A stretch of 64,000 bases of DNA from a virus (taxonomy: Duplodnaviria > Heunggongvirae > Uroviricota > Caudoviricetes). The notes under the pieces are model-generated. The model was given only the letters and a program-made list of their open reading frames with translations, did not search any database and was not told the DNA's origin. A program made the translations under genes and the position numbers. Positions 6,548 through 56,516 of the stretch are shown piece by piece. Location of the stretch: the IMG/VR virus record IMGVR_UViG_3300046460_000418. The stretch is one strand, 5' to 3'. Positions within the stretch are counted from its first letter, which is position 1, and each line of letters opens with the position of its first letter.

Positions 6548-6622
6548 TGGCCACGTAGCTCAGTGGGAGAGCGCCGCACTGTCGATGCGGAAGTCGGGGC
6601 TCCAATCCTCCTCGTGGCCGCC
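6548..6622 (+). tRNA. tRNA-Asp(GTC)-like element with encoded CCA; T-arm is non-canonical (possible pseudo-tRNA / degenerate copy)
   Basis: Cloverleaf read by eye. Acceptor GGCCACG / CGTGGCC is a perfect 7 bp. D-arm is GCTC-AGTGGGA-GAGC. Anticodon arm is CCGCA-CTGTCGA-TGCGG (5 bp perfect, anticodon GTC). Discriminator G + CCA at 6619-6622. The T-arm GGGGC-TCCAATC-CTCCT has a C:C mismatch and lacks the TTC of the T-loop in either register, which looks like a single indel. Confidence 0.5.
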
Positions 6623-6738
6623 ATTTCCTTTGTAAATTGGTTGAAGGCGCTCCGCTCGTTCAACGAAGCGAAATTGAACGACCTGCTTGCTCAGATGGAA
6701 GAGTTGTAAAGCCCACCATTATTGACGGAATAAGTTCG

Positions 6739-9700: not shown

Positions 9701-12576
9701 AGGTTGAGAGTCAGCGTATAGTTTTCGCCGGTCAGCAGGTCTTCCCCGTAAATCACGATATCGTTGAAGTAGCCGGTCTGGGTCGCGGCTCCGTTGATCA
9801 TCCCCGCATAAATGCCGGTCGGAACCAGCTGGAGACCCGTGGGCAGCTTTCCGGATACGAGCGTGAACTTGAGATCGCCGACACGATTTTTAATGTCCGG
9901 TGCGAGGAAGGGCTCGCTGCGCTGGTAGTAGACTGTATCGCCGCTATAGCTGAACGAGAAGGTCAGCGGCGGTCCGACATGAATTGTGAAGGGTTCAGTC
10001 TTCTTGATATCGCCAGTCGTGTCGCTGACAACAATCCGGCTGACAAAATCGCCTTCAACGAGCGGCGTGCCATGAACTTGGCCTAGCTGGGCGTCAAACT
10101 TCATACCTTGCGGAAGAACAGAGTCTTCCTCAAGCGTGTAAGTGAACGGTCCGATGCCGTTATCCTTTACGGGCCTGACCTGGAGGGCTTTGCCGACATT
10201 GCCGTTGTACACCGCATCAGCCGTGAGCGCCAACGGTGGCTGAATATGGAAACTGATCGCACCGATTGCTGGAGCGCGGGCGGTATCGTCATCGACCGTG
10301 TAGTTGATCGTGAAGTCGCCAGCTTCTCTGAAGACGCCGTTGACATCGAAGTTATCAAGCGTAATGCCCCAGACATTGTCATCGAGCGCATAGCTAGTTG
10401 GGCCGAACCCATTGCTCACCTTGCCGATATTGAAGTCCTTGAACGAACGATCTGCCGACCAGGTAAACGACCGCGCCAGGTCGCCGTCCAGAGGGTCGAT
10501 GTCCCAAGGCTCGACAACGTGCAGATCGACGGCCAGATCGGCAGTGTACTTGTCTTCATCCGTTGCACGGATGGTGACGGGATAATGCGTACCGATTGGG
10601 TCCGTGGTGGTCCCCGTCAGAAGGCCGCGAACGGTATCAAAAGACAGCGTCGCCGGTATCTTTCCATCGATGATCTTGAAGCTGGCCTTGCCCACACCGT
10701 TGGCGGCTTCGAGGATAGTCGACTTATTGCCGACATAGCGCTGGACACGGTCCTCAAGTAGCGTCAGGGCTATTGGAGCCCGGTCTACGACCGAAATCGT
10801 GAAGGGCTCGGAGACAATCGGTTGATCAAAACCATCCGTCAGACGGACCTGGAAAGTACCCAGATCAGCGATGTCTTTTTGCTCCTTCGGCGTTCCTGAG
10901 AATGTGCCGCTGCGCTCGTCGAATTTCATCCAGGAAGGCAAGGTTCCCTGGACCAGTTCGAATTTTGACGGATCGCGCATGCTCATTGGAGCAATGGTCG
11001 GCCTCACATAGGCTGCGGTGGTTCGCACAAGATCGTAATGAGGTTCGTAGGCAATCGAGAGATCATTGTAGATGCGAATGATCTGGTAGTTATTTTCGAT
11101 CTGACCAACCGCGTTCTGAACGGTCAATTGCTGATCGTATACGCCCGGCTCATCAATACCTTCGGACGAGTAGGTGCCCGTGTTCAGGTCGAAGGAAATT
11201 CTTTTGTCATGGACGTTGGAAGCGTAATTCATCGGCGCAAGAAAACCTTCGGTGACGGAAGGTGGCTTGGTGATAAATGGCTTATTGACCCGCTGATGCA
11301 TGGCCTCCAGATCAACGATCAGTTCATTCGGAAGGACCGTAAATTTAAACGGGTTCGATTGAACAGGATCGATGCCGCTGCCAGAAACCCGGACGATAAT
11401 GTCATTGAACTCCGATGGTGTCGTTGGTGTGCCGCTGATCTTGCCCGTCGTCGGATCGAGCTTGATACCGTTGGGCAACTGGCCCTGGGCGATTTCCCAA
11501 AGCAGCGACACACCTTGAACGCCAGGTGAAAACGACTGGCGGAAGTCTTTGGCGACTGTCGCCCTCAGATCGGGGATATTCGAAAGAGACAAGACGGCGG
11601 GCGTTGTGGTGAGTGCGAAGATATTCGACCGACCTGTCCGGCCATCTGCACTGTCACGGGCCTCGATCTGAAATTTTGCACTCGTATCATAGGCGTCGAA
11701 CACACCGCTGATTTCGCCCTTGTCAGTCGTGAAACCAATGCCGGTCGGTCGGAAGGTTACCGGAACGAGCCGGAACGAAAGTGTTCCAATCTTATGAGGG
11801 ACTTTCGGCGTTACCGCGAAGTCATCACCTTCATTTTTGTCTGCGATCTGATCCTTGATGTCTCGAACGGACGGGCCATCTTCGACCACGAACTGACCGT
11901 AGGTGAAGGCGACTTCACGGTTGAGGTAGTCAAAGCCACGCCATGCGACTGCGTAGTTCCCGGCGGTGCTGGGCGTCCCCTCGAATGCACCGACGCGAGT
12001 TTGCATGCCTTCGGGATTATTCGTGACCGCATCCCAACGAGTAACGGTGACACCTGCGGGGGTCGGTATCTGGGAGAAGAAGTAGCGGCCGGTGTGGTCG
12101 TAGATGTCAATCTGCTGGACATTGCCAGCCGTCTCGAACGTTTCGAAGAAAATCTTGGCGCGGGCTATACGGGTGCCAGATGCGTCAAAGCCATAGTACA
12201 ACGCGTCCTTTTCCTGTTCAGCAGTGGGCTTGCCCTCAAGAAATCCCGAATTGTCTAGCCGAATGCCATCTGGAATGTCGCCCGTTCCCTTTACCCAACG
12301 AACGACATCGCGGGTAGCAACGGGAACTTCGCGGGAAAAATCGTATCCTACAGGGGCAACGAAATAGGCGTCGATATTGTTGCCGATACCATATTGGGTG
12401 GGATCATCAGGATCGCTGGTTCCCGGTTGGCCCGGACCCGCCGGGTCTGAACCGCCCGGAGCGTAATTGATCAAGCCCGTCTTGTATCGATAAATGTATT
12501 CGTTTGACGCGGACGCCGTCAGTGGCGAAAGCGCCAAAGAAGATGCGACCAAAATCGAAAGCAATTTTTTCAACAT
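6784..12576 (-). CDS. Giant secreted repetitive protein, paralog B (1930 aa): Sec signal peptide, conserved N-terminal module, tandem He_PIG-like Ig/cadherin-like repeats, C-terminal discoidin (F5/8 type C)-like domain
   Basis: N-terminus MLKKLLSILVASSLALSPLTASA is a Sec signal. Repeats carry the motif 'LPNGIKLDPTTGKISGTPT', 'LPTGLQLVPTGIYAGMINGAAT', 'FDPVTGQLAGTPDHSFN'. C-terminus has '...YWRVIAVSRF...SSVRVESSMDGLAWKTAG...' resembling the discoidin / galactose-binding fold. RBS-like GAGATAATCT lies before the ATG. Confidence 0.9.
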   Translation of the reverse strand: MLKKLLSILVASSLALSPLTASASNEYIYRYKTGLINYAPGGSDPAGPGQPGTSDPDDPTQYGIGNNIDAYFVAPVGYDFSREVPVATRDVVRWVKGTGDIPDGIRLDNSGFLEGKPTAEQEKDALYYGFDASGTRIARAKIFFETFETAGNVQQIDIYDHTGRYFFSQIPTPAGVTVTRWDAVTNNPEGMQTRVGAFEGTPSTAGNYAVAWRGFDYLNREVAFTYGQFVVEDGPSVRDIKDQIADKNEGDDFAVTPKVPHKIGTLSFRLVPVTFRPTGIGFTTDKGEISGVFDAYDTSAKFQIEARDSADGRTGRSNIFALTTTPAVLSLSNIPDLRATVAKDFRQSFSPGVQGVSLLWEIAQGQLPNGIKLDPTTGKISGTPTTPSEFNDIIVRVSGSGIDPVQSNPFKFTVLPNELIVDLEAMHQRVNKPFITKPPSVTEGFLAPMNYASNVHDKRISFDLNTGTYSSEGIDEPGVYDQQLTVQNAVGQIENNYQIIRIYNDLSIAYEPHYDLVRTTAAYVRPTIAPMSMRDPSKFELVQGTLPSWMKFDERSGTFSGTPKEQKDIADLGTFQVRLTDGFDQPIVSEPFTISVVDRAPIALTLLEDRVQRYVGNKSTILEAANGVGKASFKIIDGKIPATLSFDTVRGLLTGTTTDPIGTHYPVTIRATDEDKYTADLAVDLHVVEPWDIDPLDGDLARSFTWSADRSFKDFNIGKVSNGFGPTSYALDDNVWGITLDNFDVNGVFREAGDFTINYTVDDDTARAPAIGAISFHIQPPLALTADAVYNGNVGKALQVRPVKDNGIGPFTYTLEEDSVLPQGMKFDAQLGQVHGTPLVEGDFVSRIVVSDTTGDIKKTEPFTIHVGPPLTFSFSYSGDTVYYQRSEPFLAPDIKNRVGDLKFTLVSGKLPTGLQLVPTGIYAGMINGAATQTGYFNDIVIYGEDLLTGENYTLTLNLRVTKFGSVALADQTNNVRRGAAAKEYPALAGNLVDPYSFALSGDYSSLPGTVLINTTTGTLTAAFYEVDDFEVATKVTDLFNRSAENTVLFHVVDDLKASTPEDMPFQRFVQKQGSVTVENRIGRLSYAMAPDSTALPDGLTLNSSSGVIQGIAIESGVTSGYRIIVTDDFDGQTASTGYFSISISERPQPQIVSKSEQTALMGKLYAIKLMKTGTVGDISWQMLTSASLLPPGLSFQSETGAIVGTATELGTSEPITIKLTDTYNGEAISTTKNFIFTVKLDGSPILMEVPTEIKARIGFPLTTGIPDVKNTIGDIEWSVSGAEDTGLAFDPVTGQLAGTPDHSFNTSVVVSISDLTGRSTSKTIHIQVFGAITVSMQAESDLIYNYDYKDSNGPNPSVTTISGQPAWSIVDPSKLPKGLSLETGTGKFLGKPLQVGAFGPIRLAVHDDLPGVGYSAPFFFTVFMNDDPIELEVQSLTTKVGFPITTAVPFIDNTLGDYYLYSLDLDGTSLSVNRDTGVVTGSFSTPQDRTVNLSITDTTNRVTSKPLALNVLPLMRIVAPSIIAPTAQEEMDDVFITRNFVVGSADWKLENASALPPGVTFDEAKGVFQGTPTASGTFGPVYVTSTDSLGDTGRSDPITFRVEPGALYLTLDSGPLQQATKRIETYSFDLKQYMTAIGFSESGLNWTWNTAGTKLPPGLSLSNGVVSGVATEPGTYNFRVTVTGPSRTASAVYSLIVVTPQVGLQLATADMPEGTTADTLKFDFKPLANATNISLSSLTWSVSGLNLATIQDGVLTEPLEQVAIPDGADFVDQSFTVTARFQDGDETVTATQSYTVRVTKQVEGATYWRVIAVSRFTTPTGSVGFSRLDLRDAALVSAKTMTSNIVSISSSIGAGSSSNYGATIGSSIANVQFIQPVDIRRLYLGHSSSSTSGKLSSVRVESSMDGLAWKTAGTFSLTSAATGTFVFSW

Positions 12577-12947: not shown

Positions 12948-13009
12948 GATCAGCTTGTCGCTTACGCAATTTGACCTAAAGATGAACTGTGCAGGCAAGA
13001 GAGAATATC

Positions 13010-14113
13010 GTGACAACGATCCAATATCCCATCCCATATGAGCTGAGTGCCAAATTCGGCAAGAACAGAACTCATAAACCAATCGTCATCGCAGACACAC
13101 TTGAATGCGATATCAAGGATGTGGCGGCAACCGAGACACAGGTTGCGGTATCGGCCGCAATGACATGGGCAACCGGCGGTTTGCCGGGGCAGGGACCAGA
13201 TGGATTCTCGGTTCACGGATACCCGGTCGTCAATGACAGGAACCCAAAGGTCGACATTCGCCTCTACAACGAAAGCTTTTATGCGCCGGTCATGAAGTTT
13301 TCACTGCTCAACGAAGATGCAGGTCAAAGCGCCCGGCCCATCGACCTGCAGGACCCCGTCAACAATCAGTTCGCGCTCGCGACCCCCTTTTCGAGACCAT
13401 ACGAAAATTTGCCCCATCAGCTGAGACTCGATCTCGAAAGGCAGTCGCTTGGACGTATCCACCGGTATGAAGACTCGCAGATCAAGGAAGTAGCCGAGGT
13501 CGGCAATTCAAGAGACGCCATCGTTGAAATGGCGCAGGAACAATTGGCGGAATTCATCGCAATTGAAGGCGTGCTGTGGCAAAGGTTGATTGCAGAGCCT
13601 CGCATACGATATCAGCGACAGCTCGTCCTCGACGGCGACGATCAGCTGAGAGGTGTCATGGTTTTCGAACTGGCTGCAAACCAAACCAAGGTTGCTCACG
13701 CTTTCCACTCTGGTATTTTCAACATCAACCGATTGCAGGATGCTGTCGAGCATATCAACGACCACTTTCCTGACCACGAGCACATCTTCCTGTTCGATGG
13801 GCTCGATGTCAAAATCGAAGACGCTTTCACTCTCTCCGAAGAGGCCGATGCTTTGACGGAAAGTGCGATGAAAGTTGTTCGGGATCTGTCAAAATACCGG
13901 GAGTATCTGGTCCCTGAGCTTCTTGAGGCAGTAAACCGGTTGAATTGGCTGGTCCTCAACGACAAAGACCTGGATGAGGTTGCTGGAACCATGCAAGAGA
14001 TGCTGCCACACCTTGCAAGGAAAGACCTGAAGCAGGAAAAAGGCGTTCGAGCAGCGATTGGGCGTTGGAATCTGAGGCCGACTGATCTGACCGCATCAGG
14101 TCCCAGAATTTAG
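13010..14113 (+). CDS. P-family paralog 1 (uncharacterised ~365-aa protein; first gene of a 5-gene tandem paralog operon)
   Basis: GTG at 13010 preceded by AAGAGAG gives MTTIQYPIPYEL, matching the M-[TA]-x-V-x-[YF]-P-x-P-Y starts of the other four paralogs. Shared motifs: FEGxFYAP, W[AS]TPFxxPY, IEGxLWxxLxxEPxxRY, F[RT]LDRxxDCxDH, FDDE and the C-terminal RWNLRP...GPRI. The track start at 12989 is an upstream in-frame GTG. Confidence 0.8.
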   Translation: MTTIQYPIPYELSAKFGKNRTHKPIVIADTLECDIKDVAATETQVAVSAAMTWATGGLPGQGPDGFSVHGYPVVNDRNPKVDIRLYNESFYAPVMKFSLLNEDAGQSARPIDLQDPVNNQFALATPFSRPYENLPHQLRLDLERQSLGRIHRYEDSQIKEVAEVGNSRDAIVEMAQEQLAEFIAIEGVLWQRLIAEPRIRYQRQLVLDGDDQLRGVMVFELAANQTKVAHAFHSGIFNINRLQDAVEHINDHFPDHEHIFLFDGLDVKIEDAFTLSEEADALTESAMKVVRDLSKYREYLVPELLEAVNRLNWLVLNDKDLDEVAGTMQEMLPHLARKDLKQEKGVRAAIGRWNLRPTDLTASGPRI

Positions 14114-14123
14114 GAGCCCGACC

Positions 14124-15197
14124 ATGACTAACGTTAAGTACCCTCTTCCTTATGCTCTCTACGCCGTTTGGGGTTCATTTCGAAAGCCCAACACAATTCG
14201 GATATCAGATGAGGTAAACCTCGATATCCGAGAGGCAAGAGAGGATGAAGCTCCGATAGTAATGAAGTGCCGGACAGCCTGGCCGACGTCGAGCCTGCCA
14301 GGGCAAGAGGCTGATGACGATGGTCATCGCCATTTGATCAACCCGCAGGCTGAGTTCCGTTTCTTCGAAGGGGCTTTTTATGCGCCACTGATGATTTTCA
14401 AGAAGGTAAGGATTGGACCGGCTGAGTTCGTCACGCCCGCAGATTTCGAACGTCTCGAAACGGACGGCCACCTTTGGGCAACCCCGTTTTCGACCCCATA
14501 CTCGTCCCACGTTTTCGCAAGGAACCTGCTGATCGACCATGACAACGGCCTGCTGCCGAGCCTCGCCCAAGCCAAACTGCGCGAAATCCATTCAAAGGGC
14601 GACCCAAGGGAAATGGCCCTTGAAGCAGCGAAATCCGACCTGCACAACTGCCTGATCGTCGATAACAGGGCTTATCGGCGTTTGGCTGAAGAACCCGTGC
14701 TCCGCTATCGGGTCTCTTCGGGCAGGGCGACGGTTACACTCGAAGAGAAGGTCGATCCCTTCCGGCTTCGCTACGACAATTCCGGATACTTCAGGCTCGA
14801 CCGCTTCGACGACTGCATCGACCACCTCTCTGCGACATATCCAGAGGCGGAAATCTTCCTGAATGTCGACAAGATCACCTTTGACCCTGATATCCAGCTG
14901 AAGTTCGACGATGAAGCCTTGTCCATGTTGATTCTGGCCACCGATCTTGAAGACAAACTTCGTTTCCACGGGGATTGCGGCGCAGAGTTGGAAGCCCTCA
15001 AGTCAAAGCTTTCGGCTTATGGTGACCTGCCCTTCTCGGAGCAGTTTGCCAAGGCCGAGGACATCTCTGGCGTGGTCGAGCGCATACTCGATCTCGCTGG
15101 ACCTGACCTTGATATCCCACCGGAAATGCGCTCGGACCTTCGTCGTTGGAACTTGCGGCCAGTCGAGGCAGGATTGTCCGCATCGCCTGGAATATAA
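14124..15197 (+). CDS. P-family paralog 2 (357 aa)
   Basis: ATG with GGAG 7 nt upstream, 10 nt after the P1 stop. Carries all family motifs (FEGAFYAPLMIF, WATPFSTPY, FRLDRFDDCIDHL, FDDEALS, ...RRWNLRPVEAGLSASPGI). Confidence 0.85.
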   Translation: MTNVKYPLPYALYAVWGSFRKPNTIRISDEVNLDIREAREDEAPIVMKCRTAWPTSSLPGQEADDDGHRHLINPQAEFRFFEGAFYAPLMIFKKVRIGPAEFVTPADFERLETDGHLWATPFSTPYSSHVFARNLLIDHDNGLLPSLAQAKLREIHSKGDPREMALEAAKSDLHNCLIVDNRAYRRLAEEPVLRYRVSSGRATVTLEEKVDPFRLRYDNSGYFRLDRFDDCIDHLSATYPEAEIFLNVDKITFDPDIQLKFDDEALSMLILATDLEDKLRFHGDCGAELEALKSKLSAYGDLPFSEQFAKAEDISGVVERILDLAGPDLDIPPEMRSDLRRWNLRPVEAGLSASPGI

Positions 15198-15208
15198 GAG
15201 CCGCTGCC

Positions 15209-16231
15209 ATGACAAATGTCATCTTCCCCGTCCCCTACAAAGTCGACGCGGTCTTCGACAAGTTTCGCAATCCCCGTGAAATCGAGATTGCCGATCACGC
15301 GACACTTGAGATCAGAGATGTGTCCAAACTGGATGCGCCGGTTCTCGTGTCCCTGCAGGCCTCCTACCATAACCACAGATACGATCTGGAGGCTTCATAC
15401 GACAGCTACCCGAGGACTGAATTGAGAATGTTCGAGGGTGAGTGGTACGCCCCACTCCTGCGATTTCCAAAGGATGGTGAGATGCGGGCTGTAACCCCAG
15501 ATGACTTCTCGGAATATTTTTCGCCCGAAGCCCTCTGGTCAACCGTCGTGAATTCAACCGGCTATGCTGCGGACGGCCCGGAATCGCGGATTCGTCGCCA
15601 GCAGGCGGGGCGATTCCCGACGCTCGAAGAGGCCAAGCTTCGCAAGGTAGAGAAGCTCGATGAAAAGCGGGAAGAGGCGAAGGCCTGGGCACGGAAAGAG
15701 CTTGAAAACTTCATCAATGTCGAAGGAACAGTCTACGAGAAGCTCAAGGGCGAGCCCGCGCTCCAATACTGGAAGATCGGCGCGGATAGTGCCGTCGTTC
15801 TGAACATCAGTATCGGACGTACATTCAGCCGAGACGATGTCGGCTACTTCACGCTCGACCGGCTCGATGACTGCCTTGAGCATATCGGCAATCTCTTCCC
15901 AGGCCGGAAGTTGATGCGCCAATTCGGTGATATTCAGATCGAAAATGGGGTCGAGTTTACTTATGACGACGAAGGAATGGCAATTCGAGGTGCCCTCAGC
16001 GATGTGAAGTCGGCCCTGTTCTGGGAACGAAACCTTGATGAAGGTTTGCTGGAATTAAAAACCCGCGTTGACGCATTCAACGAGGAACAAGGCGAAGACC
16101 TCGACTCTATCGCCGACCTTGTCCAGGAATTCGTTCAACGAACCAAGCCGGATTTCAAGAAGCGCGATGCTGTTGTTGCAGCCATCACGCGTTGGGAAAT
16201 GCGCCCGATGGACACAGGTTTCAGGATTTAA
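15209..16231 (+). CDS. P-family paralog 3 (340 aa)
   Basis: ATG at 15209 gives MTNVIFPVPYKV, 11 nt after the P2 stop. The longer track ORF from 15146 overlaps P2 and is not supported by paralog alignment. Motifs present: FEGEWYAPLL, FTLDRLDDCLEHI, YDDEGMA, ...TRWEMRPMDTGFRI. Confidence 0.85.
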   Translation: MTNVIFPVPYKVDAVFDKFRNPREIEIADHATLEIRDVSKLDAPVLVSLQASYHNHRYDLEASYDSYPRTELRMFEGEWYAPLLRFPKDGEMRAVTPDDFSEYFSPEALWSTVVNSTGYAADGPESRIRRQQAGRFPTLEEAKLRKVEKLDEKREEAKAWARKELENFINVEGTVYEKLKGEPALQYWKIGADSAVVLNISIGRTFSRDDVGYFTLDRLDDCLEHIGNLFPGRKLMRQFGDIQIENGVEFTYDDEGMAIRGALSDVKSALFWERNLDEGLLELKTRVDAFNEEQGEDLDSIADLVQEFVQRTKPDFKKRDAVVAAITRWEMRPMDTGFRI

Positions 16232-16233
16232 GC

Positions 16234-17313
16234 ATGGCTCAGGTTACATATCCCATCCCTTACTTGGTGAGGGCAACCCTAAACGGCCAGCGGCGCATGG
16301 TCGACGTGGCTGACGAGATCGGCCGGGAAATCCGCGACGTTGAAGACCTCGATGCTCCAGTGGTTCTTATGTGCAAGCTCAACAGCCCAAGCCGCAATAT
16401 TCATGAGCCCGTCTGCGACCGGCCCGCAGTGTTCCGGTCTTTCGAGGGAAAGATTTACGCGCCGTGCATGGTGGTCTCAAAAGCCTTTGAAGCCGTCGAA
16501 CAGAGGCAGCTTGTACCGACTGACATCGCCAATCTGGCTCAGCAGGAATTTTACTGGTCTACCCCCTTCGACAAGCAGTATCCGCACCAGGCAAATCAGG
16601 GCGGTAACTTGTCTCTCCCGGCAGAGCGGCTGAGAAAATACCAGGTGGGTGAACTCCCTCGTCTTGACCAGCTGCCAGTCCGCAACAGCCGGACCGGAAG
16701 CGACGGTCGATCTGCGGCCATTGCGGCTGCCGAGGCAGACTTGGCAAAATATATCTCCATCGAAGGAAAACTGTGGCGGCAGACGCTTGAGCCGGTCATT
16801 CGCTATATGCGTTTTACCCAAGGCACCACCCTGATCTATCTGGCCGAGAACAAAGACATTCTGGAGCAAACGGAGGCTCGGGGTGCGTTCAGGATCGACC
16901 GAATGCAGGATTGTCTGGACCATGTGGCGGCCTTCACGACATCTCAGTCAGGTAAACCTGATGCCTACCTATTCCATGTCGCCGACATCGTCGTTGAGGA
17001 TTCCAGCGCGTTCACATTCGATGATGAGAAGGATAGCATCCTCAGGCTTTCGAACCGACTCTATGACCACCTATTCTACCAAGCGATCATGCATGAAGAC
17101 ACCATGACGCCCGATCAGCGCACTTCAATTCTCGTGATGAAGGACGCAATGGAAAGACGATCCGATGAAGATGTCGAGAAACTGGCGGAGATCATTCGCG
17201 ACTTCTCGAACGACTGGCCAGTTCCCACCTTCCCGTTGCCAGCTGATGTGCCGCTGCTACTGGAACGATGGGACCTACGCCCGGCCGGTCAGAACGCCGG
17301 AATGAAAATTTAA
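16234..17313 (+). CDS. P-family paralog 4 (359 aa)
   Basis: ATG at 16234 gives MAQVTYPIPYLV, 2 nt after the P3 stop. Motifs present: FEGKIYAPCM, WSTPFDKQYP, FRIDRMQDCLDHV, FDDEKDS, ...ERWDLRPAGQNAGMKI. Confidence 0.85.
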   Translation: MAQVTYPIPYLVRATLNGQRRMVDVADEIGREIRDVEDLDAPVVLMCKLNSPSRNIHEPVCDRPAVFRSFEGKIYAPCMVVSKAFEAVEQRQLVPTDIANLAQQEFYWSTPFDKQYPHQANQGGNLSLPAERLRKYQVGELPRLDQLPVRNSRTGSDGRSAAIAAAEADLAKYISIEGKLWRQTLEPVIRYMRFTQGTTLIYLAENKDILEQTEARGAFRIDRMQDCLDHVAAFTTSQSGKPDAYLFHVADIVVEDSSAFTFDDEKDSILRLSNRLYDHLFYQAIMHEDTMTPDQRTSILVMKDAMERRSDEDVEKLAEIIRDFSNDWPVPTFPLPADVPLLLERWDLRPAGQNAGMKI

Positions 17314-17322
17314 GGACCAAAA

Positions 17323-18453
17323 ATGGCCGACGTAATTTATCCAGTACCCTATTCGATCATCGCGCAGGTTGGCCGCAAATCGAAGTTCGAGCGCTATGAA
17401 ATCTCCGACGAGATGAGGGTCACTATCCCGACGGTCGAAGCAGACGCTGCACCAATCGTTATTTCACTGGACAAGGTATGGCCGTTGCGAGGGCTGCAGG
17501 GTCAGCCTCCGGAGCGCTGGAACCGGGCTGACGATTTGCAAGCCTGCATTGCCGCCAATCCGACCGTGAAGCTGCGCCAGCATGAGGGGCGTTTCTTTGC
17601 GCAAATGATGATTTTTGGAAAAGAAAACTATATCGGCGAGCCCAGGTGGGCGAAGCCACTGGACCTTGCTGATATCGGTGATCACCGGGTTGTCTGGGCG
17701 AACGGATTCCAGCGGCCCTACGATTACCATACTACGCGCTCAAACAGCTGGGAATCCGACACCGAGTTGCATTTGCATCATCGCGACGGCGGCCTGATGT
17801 GGACCGGAGACAAGAAGATCAAGGCATTGGAGGCGGGCCAGGAGAACCGGCGATCCGAGGCTTTTGAGAAGGCCGCTGCTGATGCCCTGGCCTATCTTGA
17901 AATCGATGGCCATCTCTGGCGGGCAATCGATGGTGAACCGGTTTTCAAGTATCGTATCCAGAACGGCGCGATTGAGATCGAGATCACCGATGACCACTAT
18001 CTCAACAGCTCGGTCGAGCAAGGTGTCTTCCGGCTAGACCGTCACCAGGATTGCCTGGACCATATCCGGGAGATTACTGCAGCCCTTTGTTATCCTGAAT
18101 GGCCCATCATGGAGGGTTTTGACAATCTGCAGATCAGTCCGGCATGTGAACTGGCGTTCGACGACGAAGCTGCAACGCTGCTCGCAATGGCACATGCCAC
18201 GGTCCTCAAGATGGAGCGCTTCATGAAGGGAGTAGGCTTGCAGCAGACGCCTGCCGAAATGCAGAAGGTCTACAAGAAGCTGTTCGATCTGATGGGGCCT
18301 GGATATGAAGGCCGGGTCGACGAAATCAGTGAGACCCTTGAAAATAGCCGCAGCGTTTGGCCGCACGAAAACTACGAAGCTTCCGGGATAGGCCTTGCCC
18401 TCAATCGCTGGAACATGCGGCCGGTTGCAGAAAGTGACGCCTTCAAAATTTAG
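17323..18453 (+). CDS. P-family paralog 5 (376 aa)
   Basis: AAGGACC RBS + ATG, 9 nt after the P4 stop. MADVIYPVPYSI. Motifs present: HEGRFFAQMM, FRLDRHQDCLDHI, FDDEAAT, ...NRWNMRPVAESDAFKI. Confidence 0.85.
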   Translation: MADVIYPVPYSIIAQVGRKSKFERYEISDEMRVTIPTVEADAAPIVISLDKVWPLRGLQGQPPERWNRADDLQACIAANPTVKLRQHEGRFFAQMMIFGKENYIGEPRWAKPLDLADIGDHRVVWANGFQRPYDYHTTRSNSWESDTELHLHHRDGGLMWTGDKKIKALEAGQENRRSEAFEKAAADALAYLEIDGHLWRAIDGEPVFKYRIQNGAIEIEITDDHYLNSSVEQGVFRLDRHQDCLDHIREITAALCYPEWPIMEGFDNLQISPACELAFDDEAATLLAMAHATVLKMERFMKGVGLQQTPAEMQKVYKKLFDLMGPGYEGRVDEISETLENSRSVWPHENYEASGIGLALNRWNMRPVAESDAFKI

Positions 18454-27273: not shown

Positions 27274-27765
27274 TTATCGGCGTTTGGCCCTGGCGTAATA
27301 GCGCTTGGGCCTTCCGGTCGAATCCTTGGGGAGAATGAAGGCATTGATGCCGACAAGGTCCCCGATTTGCCGAATGGCAAAGTCGCCATCGTTGTTCACC
27401 TGTCCGGTGATCGCTGAAACGACCTTGGGAGCAGGGGTTCTGGACAGGCGAGCGCCAAGGCTTGGATCACGCTTTACGAGGTCAGGTCGAGACATCAAGA
27501 GCCAGGCGGCGAAAAATGCATCTGTGTACCAGTTGTCAGGGGTGTGGCCAGCAGGAACCGACGGCATCACTGCCGTGGCCAATGCGGTCTCCAGACTGGC
27601 GCTCATCTGCTCCAGATCAACATTGTCCAGCCAGCGATTGAAGTCGGCTGAAATCGTGTCCGTATCTATGCTCTTCGCTGCCAGGAGGTATCCAGCGATG
27701 ACGCATGCGGCCGAGTTCGACGAGCCGAGAGAAAACCGGATGATGTCACCTTCGTTGATATTCAT
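27274..27765 (-). CDS. Hypothetical protein (163 aa) with basic C-terminus (RPKRYYARAKRR)
   Basis: Clean ORF. No family recognised. Confidence 0.45.
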   Translation of the reverse strand: MNINEGDIIRFSLGSSNSAACVIAGYLLAAKSIDTDTISADFNRWLDNVDLEQMSASLETALATAVMPSVPAGHTPDNWYTDAFFAAWLLMSRPDLVKRDPSLGARLSRTPAPKVVSAITGQVNNDGDFAIRQIGDLVGINAFILPKDSTGRPKRYYARAKRR

Positions 27766-28261
27766 AGAATGCCCTTTTCAAACTTCGCCGATATCACGAA
27801 ATGAGCCGTCGCGGAACTGCTCCGTGTTCTCGACGCCGCCGTCTTCACGGATGACACACCAGTCGAGCGCACGAATTTCTTCAGCACTCAGTCGGATACC
27901 GACCCCTTCCTGGCTGGCATCCCTGATACGGTCGACCACGTAAGAAAGGGTCGAAGCATAGGTGAGCGGCGTGCCATCCTGCCGTTTGAGGTAATTGCGA
28001 ACGCGTTTGCTGGACATCGAGATCATTCCAAATTGAGCTTGGACTTATATGGCGCAAGTTGATCTGAGGTTAAAGGCTTCGACGTCACAGGGCCCCCAGC
28101 TTCACGGTCAGCGTTCCCTGCTCATCAGCACTGCGGAAATTTCTGCATCAGGAGAATAAGCGTCAAGGAAATGTCGAAAAATTGTTGACGTCTTGCGATT
28201 TTTCAAAGGACAATCCACTCGCCGACATTTGGGAATGCACGCTCGCGTGTTCGATTGATTA

Positions 28262-31200
28262 ATGCTGCATGATTTCTTTGAAGGGCTGCCCAGCCAGCCT
28301 GGTTTCACAACGATCTTTGAAGCCATGAAGGCATTGCAGAACAATAATCTTTCTGGAGCTGCTTTTGAAGCGTTCGCGCTGGAAGTGTTGAAAGCCGATC
28401 CGCTTTTGCAGGTGGCCGCCGCATACCGAAGGAAAGACGCGCCCAAGGAAATCCTCAAAAAACTATCGTTGCGTCCAGATGAGGATAACGGGACAGACAT
28501 CATCATTGTAGACCGCAATGACCGCATCATCGCCGTCCAGGTAAAGTTCCGCCAAGACACGTCATCCAGCATATCGTGGCGAGAGTTGGGGACTTTTTGG
28601 GGTGAGTCCGTCAATGCTGATGCCCGGATCGTCTTCACGACAGCCAGCGATGTCGATCCATCTGGAAAAGCGCCCGAAGACTCGAAGCTGATCAAGATTT
28701 GCTACCACGACCTGGCGTCTCTCGACCCTGAACATCTCAATCTTGCCGTCCAAATCCTGGCAGGAAACGCACCCCAGGCTGCCGGGCGGCGTGACGAGAA
28801 GCCACATCAGAGCCGTGCGATTGAAGATATCCTTCGCGAGCTGCAGGTCCATGGGAAGGGTGTTTTCCACTCTGCCTGCGGCACCGGAAAGACGCTCACC
28901 TCGGAACGAGTGATGGAAGGTCTTTTCGAAAACAAGGGAGGAACCGCGCTATTCCTGGTCCCATCCCTCAACCTGCTGCGCCAGGTCATGGTGGAGTGGG
29001 CGAGGGAACTGGCGGACGATGATCGGTTCGCATTCATCGCTGTATGCTCGGATAACACGGTCTCGACGGCGAACGAGGAAGGGAACCGTTACGATATCAC
29101 GGTTGCGAATGTGGGCGTGCCGGTCACGTCATCCGCCGATGAGGTGCGGGCTTTCCTGTCCAAACCTCGGAACTCGGATGCTGTACGGATTGTCTTTGCG
29201 ACTTATCAGTCCAGCCCTCTGATCGGCGAGGCCACATCGGATTCGGAGCCCTTCGAGATCATTTTCTACGATGAAGCGCATCGGACCGTCAGCGCGAAGA
29301 CGAAACAAGCCGAGATTTCGCCATTCTCTTACGCGCTGTCCGACGGAAACGTCGAGGCCAGGCTCCGGCTGTTCATGACGGCCACACCGAAAATCCGACG
29401 CTTCCGCGCAGAGCAGACCAATGATGAGGTCGAGTACCTCTCGATGGACGACGTCACGGTCTATGGTCCGGTCATCCACCGGTACACCATGACCGAGGCG
29501 GCCAGGGACAAGGTCACCTGCAAGGTCAAGATCGTTGCCGTTGCCATAAATGAGGCGGAGCTTTCAGTTCCTTTGAAGGGTAGCTTCACTCATGTTTCAG
29601 ACATTCCGGTCACCGCTGGCCTGATGGCCAATGTCATTGGCGTCGAGAAGGCAATCGCAATCTCCAATGCCGCCGCCGTCATCACGTATCATTCTCGGCT
29701 GCAGGATGCAGAACGCTTCTCGCGAATCATGGAAGAGAGGCTTGAGGGCTGGAATGTCGCCCATATCAGCGGAAAGCAGACTGCCGCTAAACGTGGAAAG
29801 CTGATCGACGGGGTGAAGCGCAGCGAGCAGAGCCTTACGACGAATGTTCGGTGCCTGACGGAGGGTGTTGATTTCCCGGCAGTCGATATGGTCGCGATCC
29901 TCGCCAATATCCAAAGCAAGATCGACATCACGCAAATTGTTGGCCGGGCTGTGCGGCGACCGGAAAATAGCGAAAAAGAGTTCGGGTACGTGATGCTTCC
30001 GCTCGTCATCGGTAGCAGCCAAAGCGACGAGGAGATGTTCAGGTCGCAAGGGTTCGAAGTTCTTTGGGATGTCGTGTCCGCAATCGCCGACGCCGATGAC
30101 GACTTCATGAACCTCTTGAATGAAGCGCGGCTCGAAACAGGTCAGCAGGGCGGCACACGCTTCCAGTCACTATCCCAGCAGTTAAGGGAGAGAATTGATC
30201 TCGTCGGCATCAGCAGTGTCGCGCTCTGCGATGCGATCACCGTGCGCATCCTGGAGAAAACGACGTCGAATTTCTACTATGGCTTCGGGCAGCTGAAAAA
30301 GCACCTGCAGACGTTCGGCACATTCAGCATGCCAAACGGCTTCATGACGGAAGACGGGTTCCCTCTCGGCAATTGGATCAGCAATACGACCTATCGATGG
30401 AGGAACGGAACTCTGTCATCGGACAAGGTCGAGATGCTGAAGGAAATCGGCTTGTCATCCATGACGGCGGACGAGCGCTTCGATAACAGCATCGCGATCC
30501 TCGAACGATACTTCGAAGCGAACGGCCGAAGCTATCTGACCAGCGGTATCGTGTCGGAGGACTACGCGCTTGGAGCCTGGCTCAAAACGGTAGGCAATCG
30601 GAGAAAGCAAGGTCTCGTGCCGGAGGATCGACTGCAGCGGTTGGACGCGCTGGGCGTGGTCTGGGAGCCGGATGGCGACCTGTTTGAGAAGGGATACTCC
30701 CGCCTGCTCGATTTCCACCAGACCTACGGCCACGCACGCGTAAAACTCGATTACGTCGATCCGGAGGGCTTCCATCTGTATAATTGGCTCCGGGTCCAGC
30801 GCACGCTGCTGAAGCAGGGCAAGATAACTGCGGAGCGCGTAGCAGCACTGGAAACGCTCGGGGTGAAGGGCGGCGTATTGGACGAGACTTACGCCCGCAA
30901 TATCGGTATCGCCGAGAGATACCTCATCCACAATGGAAGCAGTGGTCACATTCCGACGTCTGCCGTGTTTGAAGACATAAAGCTTGGTGAGTGGATAGCG
31001 CAAGCAAAGAACAGGATCAGACGCGGTAAGGTGCCTGAGAAGTGGGTTCAAAGGCTGGCAGATATCGGGATCGTCGTAGAAGCTTCCACAAGGGGGCCGA
31101 AGCCGGGTTCCAAGAGGGAAGCTAAGCCAGAGGCCGACAAACCGAGAGCTTGGGACGAGGCCTTCAATCGAGGACTTCTCAAGCTGACCCGATACAAGGA

Positions 31201-31405
31201 GGTCCATGGGCATACCAACGTCCACCAGGCCAAGGGCATTTTTGAAGACTTCAATCTAGGAAGCTGGCTTCACCTGAGACTGCGGAACTGGCGCAACGAC
31301 ATGCTGAGCCAGGAACAGATCGATGCATTGGTCGCCCTCGGTGTTGAAAAATATCGCCCCCAGAGAGGCAGTAAGATTGCGATTGGGGTATCAGCCGCAC
31401 TCTGA
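28262..31405 (+). CDS. Large (1047 aa) nuclease-helicase: N-terminal Mrr-like PD-(D/E)xK restriction-endonuclease fold, SF2 DEAD/DEAH helicase core, five C-terminal HA (helicase-associated) repeats
   Basis: N-terminus 'GTDIIIVDRNDRIIAVQVKFRQ' is an Mrr-cat-like D...(E/Q)xK. Helicase motifs: 'HSACGTGKT' (motif I), 'FYDEAHRT' (DEAH, II), 'LFMTATP' (III), 'QIVGRAVR' (VI). C-terminal repeats of type '[ED]xxLGxW[LI]xxxRxxxxxGxLxxExxxxLxxLGVxW' occur five times (e.g. 'EDYALGAWLKTVGNRRKQGLVPEDRLQRLDALGVVW'). Confidence 0.85.
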   Translation: MLHDFFEGLPSQPGFTTIFEAMKALQNNNLSGAAFEAFALEVLKADPLLQVAAAYRRKDAPKEILKKLSLRPDEDNGTDIIIVDRNDRIIAVQVKFRQDTSSSISWRELGTFWGESVNADARIVFTTASDVDPSGKAPEDSKLIKICYHDLASLDPEHLNLAVQILAGNAPQAAGRRDEKPHQSRAIEDILRELQVHGKGVFHSACGTGKTLTSERVMEGLFENKGGTALFLVPSLNLLRQVMVEWARELADDDRFAFIAVCSDNTVSTANEEGNRYDITVANVGVPVTSSADEVRAFLSKPRNSDAVRIVFATYQSSPLIGEATSDSEPFEIIFYDEAHRTVSAKTKQAEISPFSYALSDGNVEARLRLFMTATPKIRRFRAEQTNDEVEYLSMDDVTVYGPVIHRYTMTEAARDKVTCKVKIVAVAINEAELSVPLKGSFTHVSDIPVTAGLMANVIGVEKAIAISNAAAVITYHSRLQDAERFSRIMEERLEGWNVAHISGKQTAAKRGKLIDGVKRSEQSLTTNVRCLTEGVDFPAVDMVAILANIQSKIDITQIVGRAVRRPENSEKEFGYVMLPLVIGSSQSDEEMFRSQGFEVLWDVVSAIADADDDFMNLLNEARLETGQQGGTRFQSLSQQLRERIDLVGISSVALCDAITVRILEKTTSNFYYGFGQLKKHLQTFGTFSMPNGFMTEDGFPLGNWISNTTYRWRNGTLSSDKVEMLKEIGLSSMTADERFDNSIAILERYFEANGRSYLTSGIVSEDYALGAWLKTVGNRRKQGLVPEDRLQRLDALGVVWEPDGDLFEKGYSRLLDFHQTYGHARVKLDYVDPEGFHLYNWLRVQRTLLKQGKITAERVAALETLGVKGGVLDETYARNIGIAERYLIHNGSSGHIPTSAVFEDIKLGEWIAQAKNRIRRGKVPEKWVQRLADIGIVVEASTRGPKPGSKREAKPEADKPRAWDEAFNRGLLKLTRYKEVHGHTNVHQAKGIFEDFNLGSWLHLRLRNWRNDMLSQEQIDALVALGVEKYRPQRGSKIAIGVSAAL

Positions 31406-31411
31406 CAGAGG

Positions 31412-31621
31412 TCAGCTGTCCCGGACACTCATCAAGGGTAAGCGCAGGAAATGGATCATGCCGTCGACATCATCCACGGCCGTGATTTCCAGTTCGTCAT
31501 CAAAGATTTCGGATACTGCGACAACGGTGCCGACCAGAGAGCGCAGGAAATCCTGCTCGTGTTCAGGCAAGCCATAAAGCAGGGCATCGGGGACTTGCAG
31601 GAGGATCACACTTCGGGTCAT
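31412..31621 (-). CDS. Small acidic hypothetical protein (69 aa)
   Basis: ORF 40 nt downstream of the 31662 stop on the same strand. Weak RBS. Confidence 0.3.
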   Translation of the reverse strand: MTRSVILLQVPDALLYGLPEHEQDFLRSLVGTVVAVSEIFDDELEITAVDDVDGMIHFLRLPLMSVRDS

Positions 31622-31661
31622 GGTCAGACAATCAGGTAGAGGAAAGCCCGAGACAAGTCAC

Positions 31662-32138
31662 TCAGCTAACGATCATTCCCGTGTCGACCCTAAGCTTGAT
31701 TGTGGCACCGTCATCGAACGTGAGGGAAACGACATCTTCATCGACTTCGTAGTCTTCGAGAACATTTTTGTGATAACGCCATTTCTCTTCGTAGGTGCCG
31801 AGAGCGAGCATAATGCAGCCGATGTGATCAAATACGAGAAGGCCACTCTCGGTCAGGGAATAATCGATGACCGGAAACTGGTGATAATGCTGCACGAACC
31901 CTGCAGAACCTGATCTGAGCACCCAGACCGAGTCGTTGGCCAGCGCAATCACGTCGCCTTCAACCGTCAGCACCTTCGGAGCAATGCCAATGCCGATTGC
32001 CTTGATTAGAACCGAGTGGATGGCTGCGCCGTCAGCGAACTGAAAGCTGAAGTAATCACACTCTCGGCCTTGGCTGGCGTCGATCAGAAAATCATGAGGC
32101 GCTTCCGCTTCAACCTGATGCATAGTGATCTCGCTCAT
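31662..32138 (-). CDS. Acidic cytoplasmic protein (~158 aa), translationally coupled to the upstream signal-peptide protein (immunity-like partner)
   Basis: The ATG at 32138 overlaps the upstream stop (ATGA, 32135-32138), with AAGGGAA RBS 8 nt upstream. Product begins MSEITMHQVEAEAPHDF... and is D/E-rich. Confidence 0.55.
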   Translation of the reverse strand: MSEITMHQVEAEAPHDFLIDASQGRECDYFSFQFADGAAIHSVLIKAIGIGIAPKVLTVEGDVIALANDSVWVLRSGSAGFVQHYHQFPVIDYSLTESGLLVFDHIGCIMLALGTYEEKWRYHKNVLEDYEVDEDVVSLTFDDGATIKLRVDTGMIVS

Positions 32139-32872: not shown

Positions 32873-33105
32873 TCGATCTCCACGACAATCAGACGCATGG
32901 AGCTTACACCAATTATGTCAACACTTTAAAATTAGCTCATGGGAGCGTTAACGAAACCTTGCTTAATCAATGTTCTGGCAGGAGGACAACCGACAACAAC
33001 TCTTATCGCCGCATCGTGTTTCCTACAGCATATTGCTGCTTGACGCTTTTTAGGCCGTCCTCGAACATTTAAATTGGTCACGACTGATTGTAAAGGACGC
33101 TTGCT

Positions 33106-34467
33106 TTGCACACTGGAACGAAGAACCAAATCAATGGCACAGCAGCTCAACTAAGAATGCAGACAGCTCTGCTTTTAGAGGATTTCACCTGTAATAGTAG
33201 CAATACAGTTGATTTGATGGGCTGGGACCTGATTGCCCAAAAAGAAGGTTCTAAGGCTCCGTCCGCTGAAATGATTGCGCCAAATATAGAGTATCTGATC
33301 CAGAGCAAATCATCCGTAAACAGGATTGTTAGCGGGCCGCAGATCGAATTAACCAACATAATACGGCTACTTAATTCGGCGATACCAAGCTTTATAGTCT
33401 ATTTGAGACCGAGCGGCTTGAACATAGCCGAGGTTTTCGTCGTGCTGGTAAACGAACAAGTGCGTGATCTGGCCAAGAAAGCTGAGATAGAAGCAAGGAA
33501 GAAAGGTACCCCCAACCATCAAAAGAGGGTTACGATCCCTCTAGACATCGGCGTGCATATCGAACGAATAACTGAACATTTCAGATTTGAAGATATTTTT
33601 CGCGAACTCATTGACCGGGACCGAACTGAACTACTGTCGAAGAAAGTCAAAGCAAAACCTGAACTTGCAGGCCTTACATTGGTCGGAACAGCGTCGGCAT
33701 CTTACGAAAGCGATCATTCCCGAGTCTGTTTCCCGCTTGTTGACGTGTACCAAGGCTCACGCAAATTTGGAGACGGCACGCTGGTCTTCTCAACTAAATT
33801 TTTCACCTACTGGCTGCGCGATGAATTGACGGGGCAAAGTCCTTCAACCGACCAAGCACTCGGAGAATGGGACGTTGCGCCAAAAGCAAAGTTGAGCGAA
33901 GTGATCAACGCGATCAGAGCAATTAGAATTATGCAAGGCGACAATGCTCGATGTGAAACCTTCTACAATGGGAAGAAAAAAGTCTACGAGAGGAAATACG
34001 GCGATAAGTTCGCTGTGCTCGACAATAAGGCCCTACAGGTACTTTCCTTTGCAGAGATTTGCCTTGCCGCTTGCCGCGCGAGGGATATGGACCTCGACCC
34101 GATAACTTGCTTTCCGATAATCGGCGGCGAATTGTTTCACACTGAGGCTTTTAACAGCCTGGCGGCAAGGGGCGGCGTCGTAAAAATCCCAAAGTATATA
34201 CCTGGATCGGGAGTGCATAGCTTTACGCTCGCGGAAGTCTACGAGTTAGGTGGCATCTACATCAGTTTATCTTACAGGTTCGAATGCTATCATGAAAAAC
34301 CGATAATGAGGGATGAAGTTATCAGTGTCGGGCCAGGTGTTTTTCACGGCGCAAAAGCGTTCACATCGATTGACGCTGTCGAAGCTCATCATAACCAAAG
34401 GCATGGAGGACTTGGTCTTCAATATAATTCTCTAATAAATCTGCCAGACCCGGTGGCTGATAATTAG
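33106..34467 (+). CDS. Orphan 453-aa protein inside a low-GC insertion; function unknown
   Basis: Long ORF in a stretch clearly more AT-rich than its surroundings (about 32880-34500). Start ambiguous: TTG 33106 or ATG 33157. Confidence 0.6.
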   Translation: MHTGTKNQINGTAAQLRMQTALLLEDFTCNSSNTVDLMGWDLIAQKEGSKAPSAEMIAPNIEYLIQSKSSVNRIVSGPQIELTNIIRLLNSAIPSFIVYLRPSGLNIAEVFVVLVNEQVRDLAKKAEIEARKKGTPNHQKRVTIPLDIGVHIERITEHFRFEDIFRELIDRDRTELLSKKVKAKPELAGLTLVGTASASYESDHSRVCFPLVDVYQGSRKFGDGTLVFSTKFFTYWLRDELTGQSPSTDQALGEWDVAPKAKLSEVINAIRAIRIMQGDNARCETFYNGKKKVYERKYGDKFAVLDNKALQVLSFAEICLAACRARDMDLDPITCFPIIGGELFHTEAFNSLAARGGVVKIPKYIPGSGVHSFTLAEVYELGGIYISLSYRFECYHEKPIMRDEVISVGPGVFHGAKAFTSIDAVEAHHNQRHGGLGLQYNSLINLPDPVADN

Positions 34468-54599: not shown

Positions 54600-55488
54600 A
54601 TGACCTACTCATCCGTTGCGATTGGCGGGCAATTGTTCTACATAGCCCGAATGAGAAATGCACCGTCGCAAACATTTGTATCACATGAATTCGAAGTCAT
54701 GACGTCGTGTGGCATCGTACGCGGCACCGACACAAAATACGGCTCCAAGACAATCCTGTTTCTGCATGGAAACAGTTTCGGACGATCCGTATTCGACAAG
54801 CAATTCGAGAGCGTTCTGGCGACGCACTATCGCCTTGTTTCCATTGATCTTCCAGGGCATGGTCAATCTGACAACCTTGATCATGGAGAATATAGTCTCT
54901 CCGAAATGACCAAGGTTGTCTTGGAAAGTAGCTAATGAATTAAGTCTAGGACGATTCGCTATTGTCGGGTGGTCTTTAGGCGGTCACATTGCGTTGGAAT
55001 TGGCGGCGGTATCGGGCGACGTGTCTGCGCTACTTCTTTGTGGAACAGCGCCCATGCATCGCGGTACGCACCATGCCTTGATAGCACATAAGCTGAGCCG
55101 GACTATCCTACTGGCGAGTCGAAAAAAATTGAACACTGCCCAACGAAAACGTTTTGTCGATGCTTGCTTTCCTGGAAACTACAACGACACTTGGCTCGAT
55201 TACGTCGCCAGGGCTGACCCCCGCGTCCGAAAGGAAATGACCAAAAGCATCCTCAAAGGTAAGGGAACAAACCAGCGAGATTTCATTGAGAGCACTTCAA
55301 TGCCGGTGTGTGTTGTAAATGGCAGTGATGAGCCATTTATTAGGCTGAGCTACTTGAACAGACTTAAAATACGCAATCTCTACCAGGGCAGGGCACTCCA
55401 GATCGAGGGCGGCGGACACACACCGTTTCAGAGTCATTCAGACGAGTTTAACAATATCGTTCACAATTTCATGAGAAGCACGCTCTAG
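54600..55488 (+). pseudogene. Alpha/beta-hydrolase-fold gene split by a frameshift near 54910-54935
   Basis: ORF 54600-54935 carries 'ILFLHGNSFG...LPGHGQSD'. ORF 54916-55488, in another frame, carries 'IVGWSLGGHIA' (GxSxG nucleophile) and the C-terminal 'GGGHTPF' His region. The two frames must be joined within about 25 nt. Confidence 0.6.
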
Positions 55489-56438: not shown

Positions 56439-56516
56439 GTATAACCTCATTTTTCAATTTGAGGTTATATAAAGCAAAATCGTCAAGGTCCAAAGGCCTG
56501 CTGAGTAAAAGCCGAG

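Follow-up and report, generated by a model that had tools for sequence, protein, structure and literature searches.

Domain architecture and kinship with Type ISP restriction enzymes

The 64,000-nucleotide stretch of DNA analysed here (hereafter the window) is IMG/VR virus record IMGVR_UViG_3300046460_000418, assigned to the Caudoviricetes, and carries in its middle a gene for a 1047-amino-acid (aa) protein that combines, in one chain, a nuclease of the Mrr family, a superfamily 2 (SF2) motor and five helicase-associated (HA) repeats (Table 1). Identical copies of this protein were found in two independent metagenome assemblies, a 43.9-kb JGI contig and a Logan contig. The gene is monocistronic, its two flanking genes both lying on the minus strand, the upstream one in divergent and the downstream one in convergent orientation.

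Table 1. Features of the nuclease-motor-HA gene, in window coordinates
Feature	Position	Strand	Basis or remark
Coding sequence, 1047 aa: Mrr nuclease, Type ISP-type SF2 motor, five HA repeats	28262..31405	+	ATG start; monocistronic
Candidate sigma-70-like promoter, TTGACG-18-GACAAT, in the 235-bp divergent intergenic region	28185..28214	+	Match count not above shuffled expectation
Mrr-family PD-QxK nuclease domain, aa 26-157	28337..28732	+	Mrr_cat_2, LlaBIII nuclease alignment, our hidden Markov model (HMM), AlphaFold2 model
Nuclease catalytic motif, D79 ... Q93-V-K95	28496..28546	+	Invariant in 12-sequence and at least 90% conserved in 81-sequence alignment
SF2 helicase-like double-stranded DNA (dsDNA) translocase core, both RecA lobes, aa 179-624	28796..30133	+	phmmer, Foldseek, PADLOC
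Motif I / Walker A, GTGKT, aa 207-211	28880..28894	+	Family alignments
Motif II, DEAH, aa 337-340	29270..29281	+	Family alignments
Motif III, TAT (aa 373-375), then loop aa 379-391	29378..29434	+	LlaBIII alignment; model confidence
Motif V with invariant R530	29843..29866	+	LlaBIII and family alignments
Motif VI, QxxGRxxR, aa 558-565	29933..29956	+	Family alignments
Helical connector between motor and HA array, aa 625-669	30134..30268	+	End of LlaBIII alignment; helices in AlphaFold2 model
HA repeat 1, aa 670-735	30269..30466	+	Pfam, our HA HMM
HA repeat 2, aa 739-804	30476..30673	+	Pfam, our HA HMM; aligns to solved HA domain 2kta
HA repeat 3, aa 808-869	30683..30868	+	Pfam, our HA HMM; sole repeat retaining the family-consensus Q41-R42
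HA repeat 4, aa 876-942	30887..31087	+	Pfam, our HA HMM
Disordered K/P/E-rich linker, aa 943-965	31088..31156	+	Model confidence <50 at 942-962
HA repeat 5, aa 966-1031	31157..31354	+	Pfam, our HA HMM

With the full-length protein as query, Pfam recognised ResIII at residues 180-377 (3.5e-19), Helicase_C at residues 469-565 (1.4e-9) and HA (PF03457) in five stretches (1.8e-54), and missed the Mrr domain. The isolated N-terminus (residues 1-184) matched Mrr_cat_2 (PF13156) at 1.1e-6, with 29 bits for a gathering cutoff of 22, and Mrr_cat at 0.002. Key residues are well kept in the family: G77, D79, Q93, K95, GTGKT, DEAH, TAT, N528, R530 and QxxGRxxR were all invariant or at least 90% conserved in family alignments of 12 and 81 sequences. 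An earlier sequence-only reading of this DNA had proposed a PD-(D/E)xK Mrr-like N-terminus, a complete SF2 core and five HA repeats, and our data bear out all three: the profile searches, the alignment to the LlaBIII nuclease and the conserved D79, Q93 and K95 place the N-terminus within the PD-(D/E)xK Mrr fold, motifs I, II, III and VI are present and conserved across the family, and our own HMM locates each of the five repeats.

The AlphaFold2 model of the whole protein (a prediction, as are all structure models used here) had a predicted local distance difference test score (pLDDT) of 85 and a predicted template modelling score of 0.72. The nuclease domain forms an alpha-beta-beta-beta-alpha-beta core with pLDDT >90, and the HA array is well folded (pLDDT about 85-95), its repeats matching the solved HA domain of BVU_0683 (2kta).

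The closest relatives of known structure are the Type ISP restriction enzymes. A phmmer search of PDB sequences retrieved LlaBIII (4XQK) at 1.5e-57 over query residues 31-623 and LlaGI (5FFJ) at 7.9e-54, the next match, to RadD, following only at 6e-4. Foldseek with the AlphaFold2 model also placed LlaBIII (4xqk_A, 4.2e-34) at the top, with XPB and RadD at ~1e-12 and the Type IV enzyme SauUSI at 3e-10. The best PADLOC profiles were REase_MTase_IIG (3e-80, profile positions 20-459 of 1646) and REase_MTase_I (2.8e-56), and these profiles of fused restriction endonucleases and methyltransferases were covered only over the N-terminal ~440-460 of their about 1600 positions. The homology to Type ISP enzymes thus extends over about 590 residues and includes the nuclease and the dsDNA translocase in the same order, with sequence identities of only about 20-27%.

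Several mechanistically relevant details are retained as well. PD-QxK is the nuclease variant that has been described as typical of Type ISP enzymes (PMC3874165). In the LlaBIII alignment, T375 of motif III corresponds to LlaBIII T376 and R530 of motif V to LlaBIII R564, two residues experimentally tied to the coupling of ATP hydrolysis and translocation (PMC7049714). The flexible loop at residues 379-391 (pLDDT <50 at 380-389) lies at the position of the Type ISP beta-hairpin loop, residues 383-390 in LlaBIII. Alignment to LlaBIII stops at query residue 623 (chain residue 656), and the model has helices in this region at 613-627, 632-644 and 653-667.

Beyond this point the protein differs from Type ISP enzymes, which carry a gamma-class N6-adenine methyltransferase (MTase) and a target-recognition domain (TRD) in this position. 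No such methyltransferase was detected in the 1047-aa protein, which has no methyltransferase match in Pfam, no NPP[YW] motif and no match to our ISP-MTase HMM; the C-terminus consists of five HA repeats and is not a TRD, according to Pfam, our own HMM and the model. Lacking both modules, the protein cannot methylate DNA or rely on its own methylation for self-protection. Judged by homology, the nuclease and motor are a specific relative of the Type ISP enzymes in which the MTase-TRD half has been replaced by HA repeats.

Relatives of the protein and their genomic contexts

The same architecture occurs in more than 1300 homologues across many phyla, with 1-16 HA copies and under generic database names. 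We scanned GTDB, with one genome per species and the family alignment as query, and classified 80 loci with home-made HMMs. Proteins with Mrr, motor and HA (1-13 copies; about 720-1,560 aa) were encoded at 30 loci (class A), and 10 loci had motor and HA with no Mrr, one of them truncated at its 5' end (class B). Another 29 loci coded for canonical Type ISP enzymes, mostly of 1600-1700 aa, in which Mrr and motor are followed by a ~950-aa tail with NPP[YW] (class C); the remaining 11 were short or other forms, including Mrr and motor with short non-HA tails (class O). The NPP[YW] motif was absent from every HA-class protein in this set. None of the GTDB species representatives contained a close relative of the window protein, identity being at most 33%. 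In a neighbour-joining tree of the motor core, Type ISP proteins formed one clade and HA proteins the remainder, the window protein and its 37%-identical relatives (P0003 and P0006) occupying a separate long branch. From these comparisons, the large nuclease-bearing class appears to be a methylase-less sister of the Type ISP enzymes.

The gene and its 20-kb surroundings gave no match in a near-identity DNA search against plasmids and phages. With the protein as query, tblastn retrieved 732 plasmid records (358 from Streptomyces, 115 from Pseudomonas megaplasmids and 34 from Rhodococcus) as compared to 4 weak phage records. Most of the top-listed plasmid matches begin at query residue ~175-182, suggesting that these proteins lack the nuclease; their sources are linear plasmids of Streptomyces and Rhodococcus and MPF_I megaplasmids of Pseudomonas. 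We examined two such genes. The Streptomyces one (L091) lies 602-3091 bp from the end of a linear plasmid, faces inward, and codes for a motor (2e-87 to our own HMM) with 4 HA repeats and no Mrr, matching the published description of ttrA, a subtelomeric, inward-facing gene reported to be necessary for conjugation of SLP2 (PMC8743542; preprint 10.1101/2024.11.13.623437). The Pseudomonas megaplasmid protein (L090) has a motor (7.5e-109 to our own HMM) and 6 HA repeats, again with no Mrr. Its gene stands amid hypotheticals on the IncP-2-type plasmid pSE5369-VIM of Pseudomonas aeruginosa (285580-302201), with antirestriction, Fic and HEPN genes nearby. Like the window protein, TtrA and the megaplasmid proteins have a motor of this family followed by tandem HA repeats, and in the motor tree they are nested among nuclease-bearing HA proteins.

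Already known were the architecture, under the names "DEAD/DEAH box helicase" and "Helicase associated domain protein", the Type ISP enzymes, and TtrA. The searchable literature yielded no described link between HA helicases or TtrA and either Type ISP enzymes or defence; in it we found neither a recognition of the Type ISP-type motor in HA-helicases such as TtrA nor one of the large nuclease-bearing class as a methylase-less sister of the Type ISP enzymes. Taken by itself, a defence candidate that joins a nuclease to a helicase is no surprise.

HA arrays are more widespread still, with 8,907 clusters at 50% identity (E <1e-3). Among the top 148 clusters (P0241-P0388), 25 had Mrr, motor and HA, 19 had motor and HA, and 104 were without an Mrr or motor match. 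The members of these 104 that we examined reach about 2100 aa, consist almost wholly of HA repeats, of which they have 7-26, and may represent a class of stand-alone HA solenoid proteins. In a logo of 546 HA repeats one Trp is invariant, and conservation is also high at Leu-Gly, Gln-Arg and Leu positions; the positions that vary most (36, 39, 40, 43 and 44) are interspersed among conserved ones on the same helix. To our knowledge, no DNA target is known for any HA array.

The gene had been described by the sequence-only reading as standing alone, and this holds: the 64-kb window has no recognised DNA methyltransferase, and its sole methyltransferase is of the UbiE/Methyltransf_11 type and 24 kb away. 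We found no methylase within 8-10 kb in any of seven Pfam-annotated contexts (the window strain, two syntenic close homologues, Synechococcus, Nocardia and two metagenomic contigs). At 14 further loci, 142 neighbouring open reading frames (ORFs) were called mechanically and summarised over the 25 most frequent Pfam families; within these families there was one C5 methylase, at one locus, and no family present at more than two of the 14 loci, so that no recurrent partner emerged; the PADLOC summary of neighbours likewise covered the 25 most frequent families. The ISP-MTase HMM, built from the methylase regions of Type ISP enzymes, had no match in 49 HA-class loci (824 kb), while its positive controls scored 700-780 bits. 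Classical Type I (HsdR) or Type III (Res) operons with HsdM/HsdS or Mod were not found in the window or in the 7 + 14 homologue contexts. Even the closest relatives have no neighbouring genes in common with the window, and in the contexts covered the homologues are not consistently embedded in restriction-modification (R-M) operons; the absence of a methyltransferase together with the conserved architecture speaks against an R-M fragment.

Some homologues lie in mobile or defence contexts. An integrase, AlpA and a resolvase accompany the Synechococcus gene; elsewhere we found AbiEi/AbiEii with transposases, an integrase with DUF4238, and also AbiH, DUF2397 and three Mokosh MkoA-like genes. The two closest homologues (L003 and L004, 37% identical) have a common neighbourhood of SIR2, a PilS/Bundlin-type pilin, an AAA ATPase, a He_PIG protein, a YjiS-like protein, DotI/IcmL and ScpB, which may point to a large conjugative element or to an unusual lineage of proteobacteria. 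Synteny of the window with these two loci and with a Pseudomonas megaplasmid was confined to the gene itself.

Possible functions

We lean, by a modest measure, towards a role as a stand-alone ATP-dependent translocating endonuclease, loaded by its HA array, that would act in methylase-independent (Type IV-like) restriction or defence against foreign DNA. By homology, the HA array would dock on duplex DNA and license the ATPase, and the motor would then move along dsDNA without unwinding it. The leading Mrr nuclease would nick or cut once the motor stalls or runs into a roadblock or a second enzyme. What the HA array recognises would set the target, be it a sequence, a modified base or a DNA structure characteristic of incoming DNA. 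This scheme draws on the biochemistry of Type ISP enzymes, in which DNA binding by the recognition module licenses the ATPase, followed by translocation and by a cut on collision or stalling (PMC3553950, PMC4666363, PMC7049714); their cleavage is collision-dependent and proceeds from head-to-head sites (PMC3553950, PMC7049714).

That the HA array serves as the DNA-docking and target-selecting module is something we infer from the HA literature and from known fusions. The HA domain has been cited as binding DNA (Mills 2013, as cited in PMC12191111), and HA also occurs in fusions with PLD nucleases and with TniQ, the target selector of Tn7. In contrast to those fusions and to BVU_0683 (2KTA), the protein studied here has an array of five HA repeats on a Type ISP-type motor-nuclease. 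With no cognate methylase encoded in cis or in the vicinity, self-protection would not be by methylation. Besides the Type ISP homology, the conserved active-site and coupling residues, the exchange of the MTase-TRD half and the lack of a methylase partner, the mobile or defence-related genes near several homologues and the strain-variable cassette just downstream in the window favour this reading.

A useful comparison is SauUSI (7CLG), an ATP-dependent Type IV enzyme. It too is a single chain with no methylase, composed of an N-terminal nuclease, an SF2 motor and a C-terminal DNA-sensing domain, and its motor is detectably similar (in addition to the Foldseek match above, PADLOC mREase_IV at 1.3e-4). 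However, SauUSI has a PLD nuclease and a DUF3427/SRA-like 5-methylcytosine sensor where the window protein has an Mrr nuclease and HA repeats, and we regard the likeness as an architectural analogy, not as close homology.

Of the earlier proposal that this gene encodes a restriction or defence enzyme, the architecture and the MTase-less, stand-alone status are therefore borne out; a defence role is plausible, whereas the "defence island" invoked for its surroundings is not recognisable in the window, where only 1 of 60 ORFs had a PADLOC match. Several observations weigh against a role in restriction or defence, or against the mechanism outlined above. The single PADLOC match in the window is weak and mad2-like (we suspect that it represents the small-molecule methyltransferase at 55692-56450), and PADLOC-DB 2.0 contains no dedicated model that the protein matches over its full length, the matches being partial ones to REase_MTase profiles and ones to generic helicase profiles. 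Many homologue neighbourhoods are of a housekeeping type. In the window protein, the consensus Q41-R42 is lost in 4 of the 5 HA repeats and kept in repeat 3. Residues 625-669, which sit where the Type ISP coupler begins, are only a putative counterpart of it, and the motor tree is a neighbour-joining tree without support values. Finally, the only experimentally studied HA-motor protein, TtrA, is without a nuclease and is tied to conjugal transfer.

This last point leads to an alternative that we consider unlikely but worth weighing, namely a TtrA-like role on mobile elements, in which the motor would recognise and process specific ends or sites in the DNA of a plasmid or an integrative and conjugative element during transfer or establishment, with the nuclease used for processing rather than immunity. 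The telomere-proximal, inward-facing helicase gene of the Streptomyces linear plasmid does belong to the family, and ttrA is reported to be needed for SLP2 conjugation; the family is abundant on plasmids and nearly absent from phage records (732 versus 4 weak ones), and the closest homologues lie near pilin (PilS/Bundlin) and DotI/IcmL genes. Yet the plasmid proteins L090 and L091 begin at the helicase and are without Mrr, whereas the window protein keeps an intact Mrr region of ~175 aa with a conserved nuclease active site, and nuclease-bearing members are mostly found on chromosomal contigs. The location differs too: ttrA lies ~600 bp from the end of a linear replicon and faces inward, whereas the present gene is mid-window, in 64 kb where no telomere, replication or conjugation genes were recognised, and shares no synteny with its close homologues beyond the gene itself.

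Two further explanations seem to us improbable. A housekeeping helicase-nuclease of DNA repair or recombination, acting for example at stalled forks or breaks and using HA for non-specific DNA binding, would account for the weak resemblance that the motor shows, in NCBIfam and in fold, to RadD, XPB and UvrB, for the conserved basic residues of the HA consensus, which are compatible with backbone binding, and for the homologues that lie among housekeeping genes. The similarity to repair helicases is, however, of the generic SF2 kind (~1e-10 to 1e-12), ~20 or more orders weaker than that to Type ISP enzymes. The family is moreover patchy across phyla, without conserved neighbourhoods, with GTDB relatives at most 33% identical and with 1-13 HA copies; such a patchy spread, with variable neighbourhoods and HA copy number, is what one expects of an accessory gene that moves horizontally and not of a core factor in repair. 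No more convincing is an orphan Type ISP or Type I-like restriction component, either working with an unlinked methyltransferase or specificity partner or surviving as an inactive remnant once the MTase-TRD half had been lost. Fused endonuclease-methyltransferase models do give the best profile matches, and GTDB class O includes several Mrr and motor proteins with short non-HA tails, but the C-terminus in question is a well-folded array of five HA repeats instead of a truncated methyltransferase, and no methyltransferase recurs nearby. That the architecture recurs in over 1300 proteins and that the catalytic residues are conserved argues against decay.

The translocating, HA-loaded endonuclease that we favour bears on several questions. 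Among translocating restriction enzymes made of a single chain, those of Type ISP are the best understood, and in them DNA recognition is linked to the methyltransferase; exchanging the MTase-TRD half for a repeat array raises the question of how the enzyme spares its own genome. The motor homology connects restriction enzymes with a plasmid-transfer factor, and it offers a mechanistic starting point for TtrA in the transfer of Streptomyces linear replicons, where TtrA would act as a dsDNA translocase descended from restriction enzymes. It also points to HA arrays, given their 8,907 clusters, as a widespread DNA-targeting module. One may speculate further, with a slim chance of being right, that the HA array, with its 1-26 copies and with its least conserved positions clustered on the helix of the invariant Trp and Arg, is an evolvable, modular DNA-recognition unit: joined to a Type ISP motor-nuclease it would have given rise to a large and so far unrecognised methylase-independent class of restriction enzymes, whose specificity would change through gain, loss and shuffling of repeats, and nuclease-less derivatives (TtrA and the megaplasmid proteins) would have been domesticated by plasmids as DNA motors specific for sites or ends in transfer.

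Other features of the window

The window is poor in recognisable genes, with about 54 of its 60 mechanically called ORFs lacking a Pfam match and none of them matching a phage structural family of PHROG, on which ground we rejected a phage origin of the window. Two small minus-strand genes at 27274-27765 and 27778-28026, next to the nuclease-motor-HA gene, had been suggested to form a toxin-immunity-like pair; neither has a match in Pfam, PHROG or PADLOC, and the suggestion is unsupported. By contrast, the low-GC insertion noted earlier does exist and proved to be a strain-variable cassette of 1.45 kb (33008-34459, GC content about 0.46-0.48). It contains an ORF at 33106-34464 with no Pfam match and is replaced, in the strain variant L001 (15145-16188), by a gene for a 292-aa DUF3223 protein. 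A second variable segment of 103 bp (31605-31708) begins ~200 bp past the stop of the helicase gene and is replaced in L001 (13344-13844) by 500 bp with a gene for a 181-aa protein. Elsewhere the variant is about 95-98% identical to the window.

At 12989-18453 (plus strand) there are five tandem paralogous ORFs of 357-376 aa with pairwise identities of 23-31% (E to 1e-48) and no Pfam match, which look like an expanded ORFan gene family. Three giant minus-strand genes code for proteins of 1930 aa (6787-12576), 2121 aa (47790-54152) and >2481 aa (56558-64000, running off the window). All three abound in He_PIG Ig-like domains, share 24-30% identity with one another, and probably represent surface or adhesin proteins. 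The sole Rfam match in the window, a tRNA-Asp (GTC) at 6549-6623 (plus strand), lies just upstream of the first giant He_PIG gene.

The UbiE/Methyltransf_11 small-molecule methyltransferase gene mentioned above is on the minus strand (55692-56450), and an alpha/beta hydrolase is encoded on the plus strand at 54916-55485. Another plus-strand gene (43161-45245) codes for a 695-aa SPFH/Band_7 protein of the YqiK-like type, which we tried as a taxonomic marker; it was uninformative, its homologues being 63-67% identical to it in many, very different phyla.

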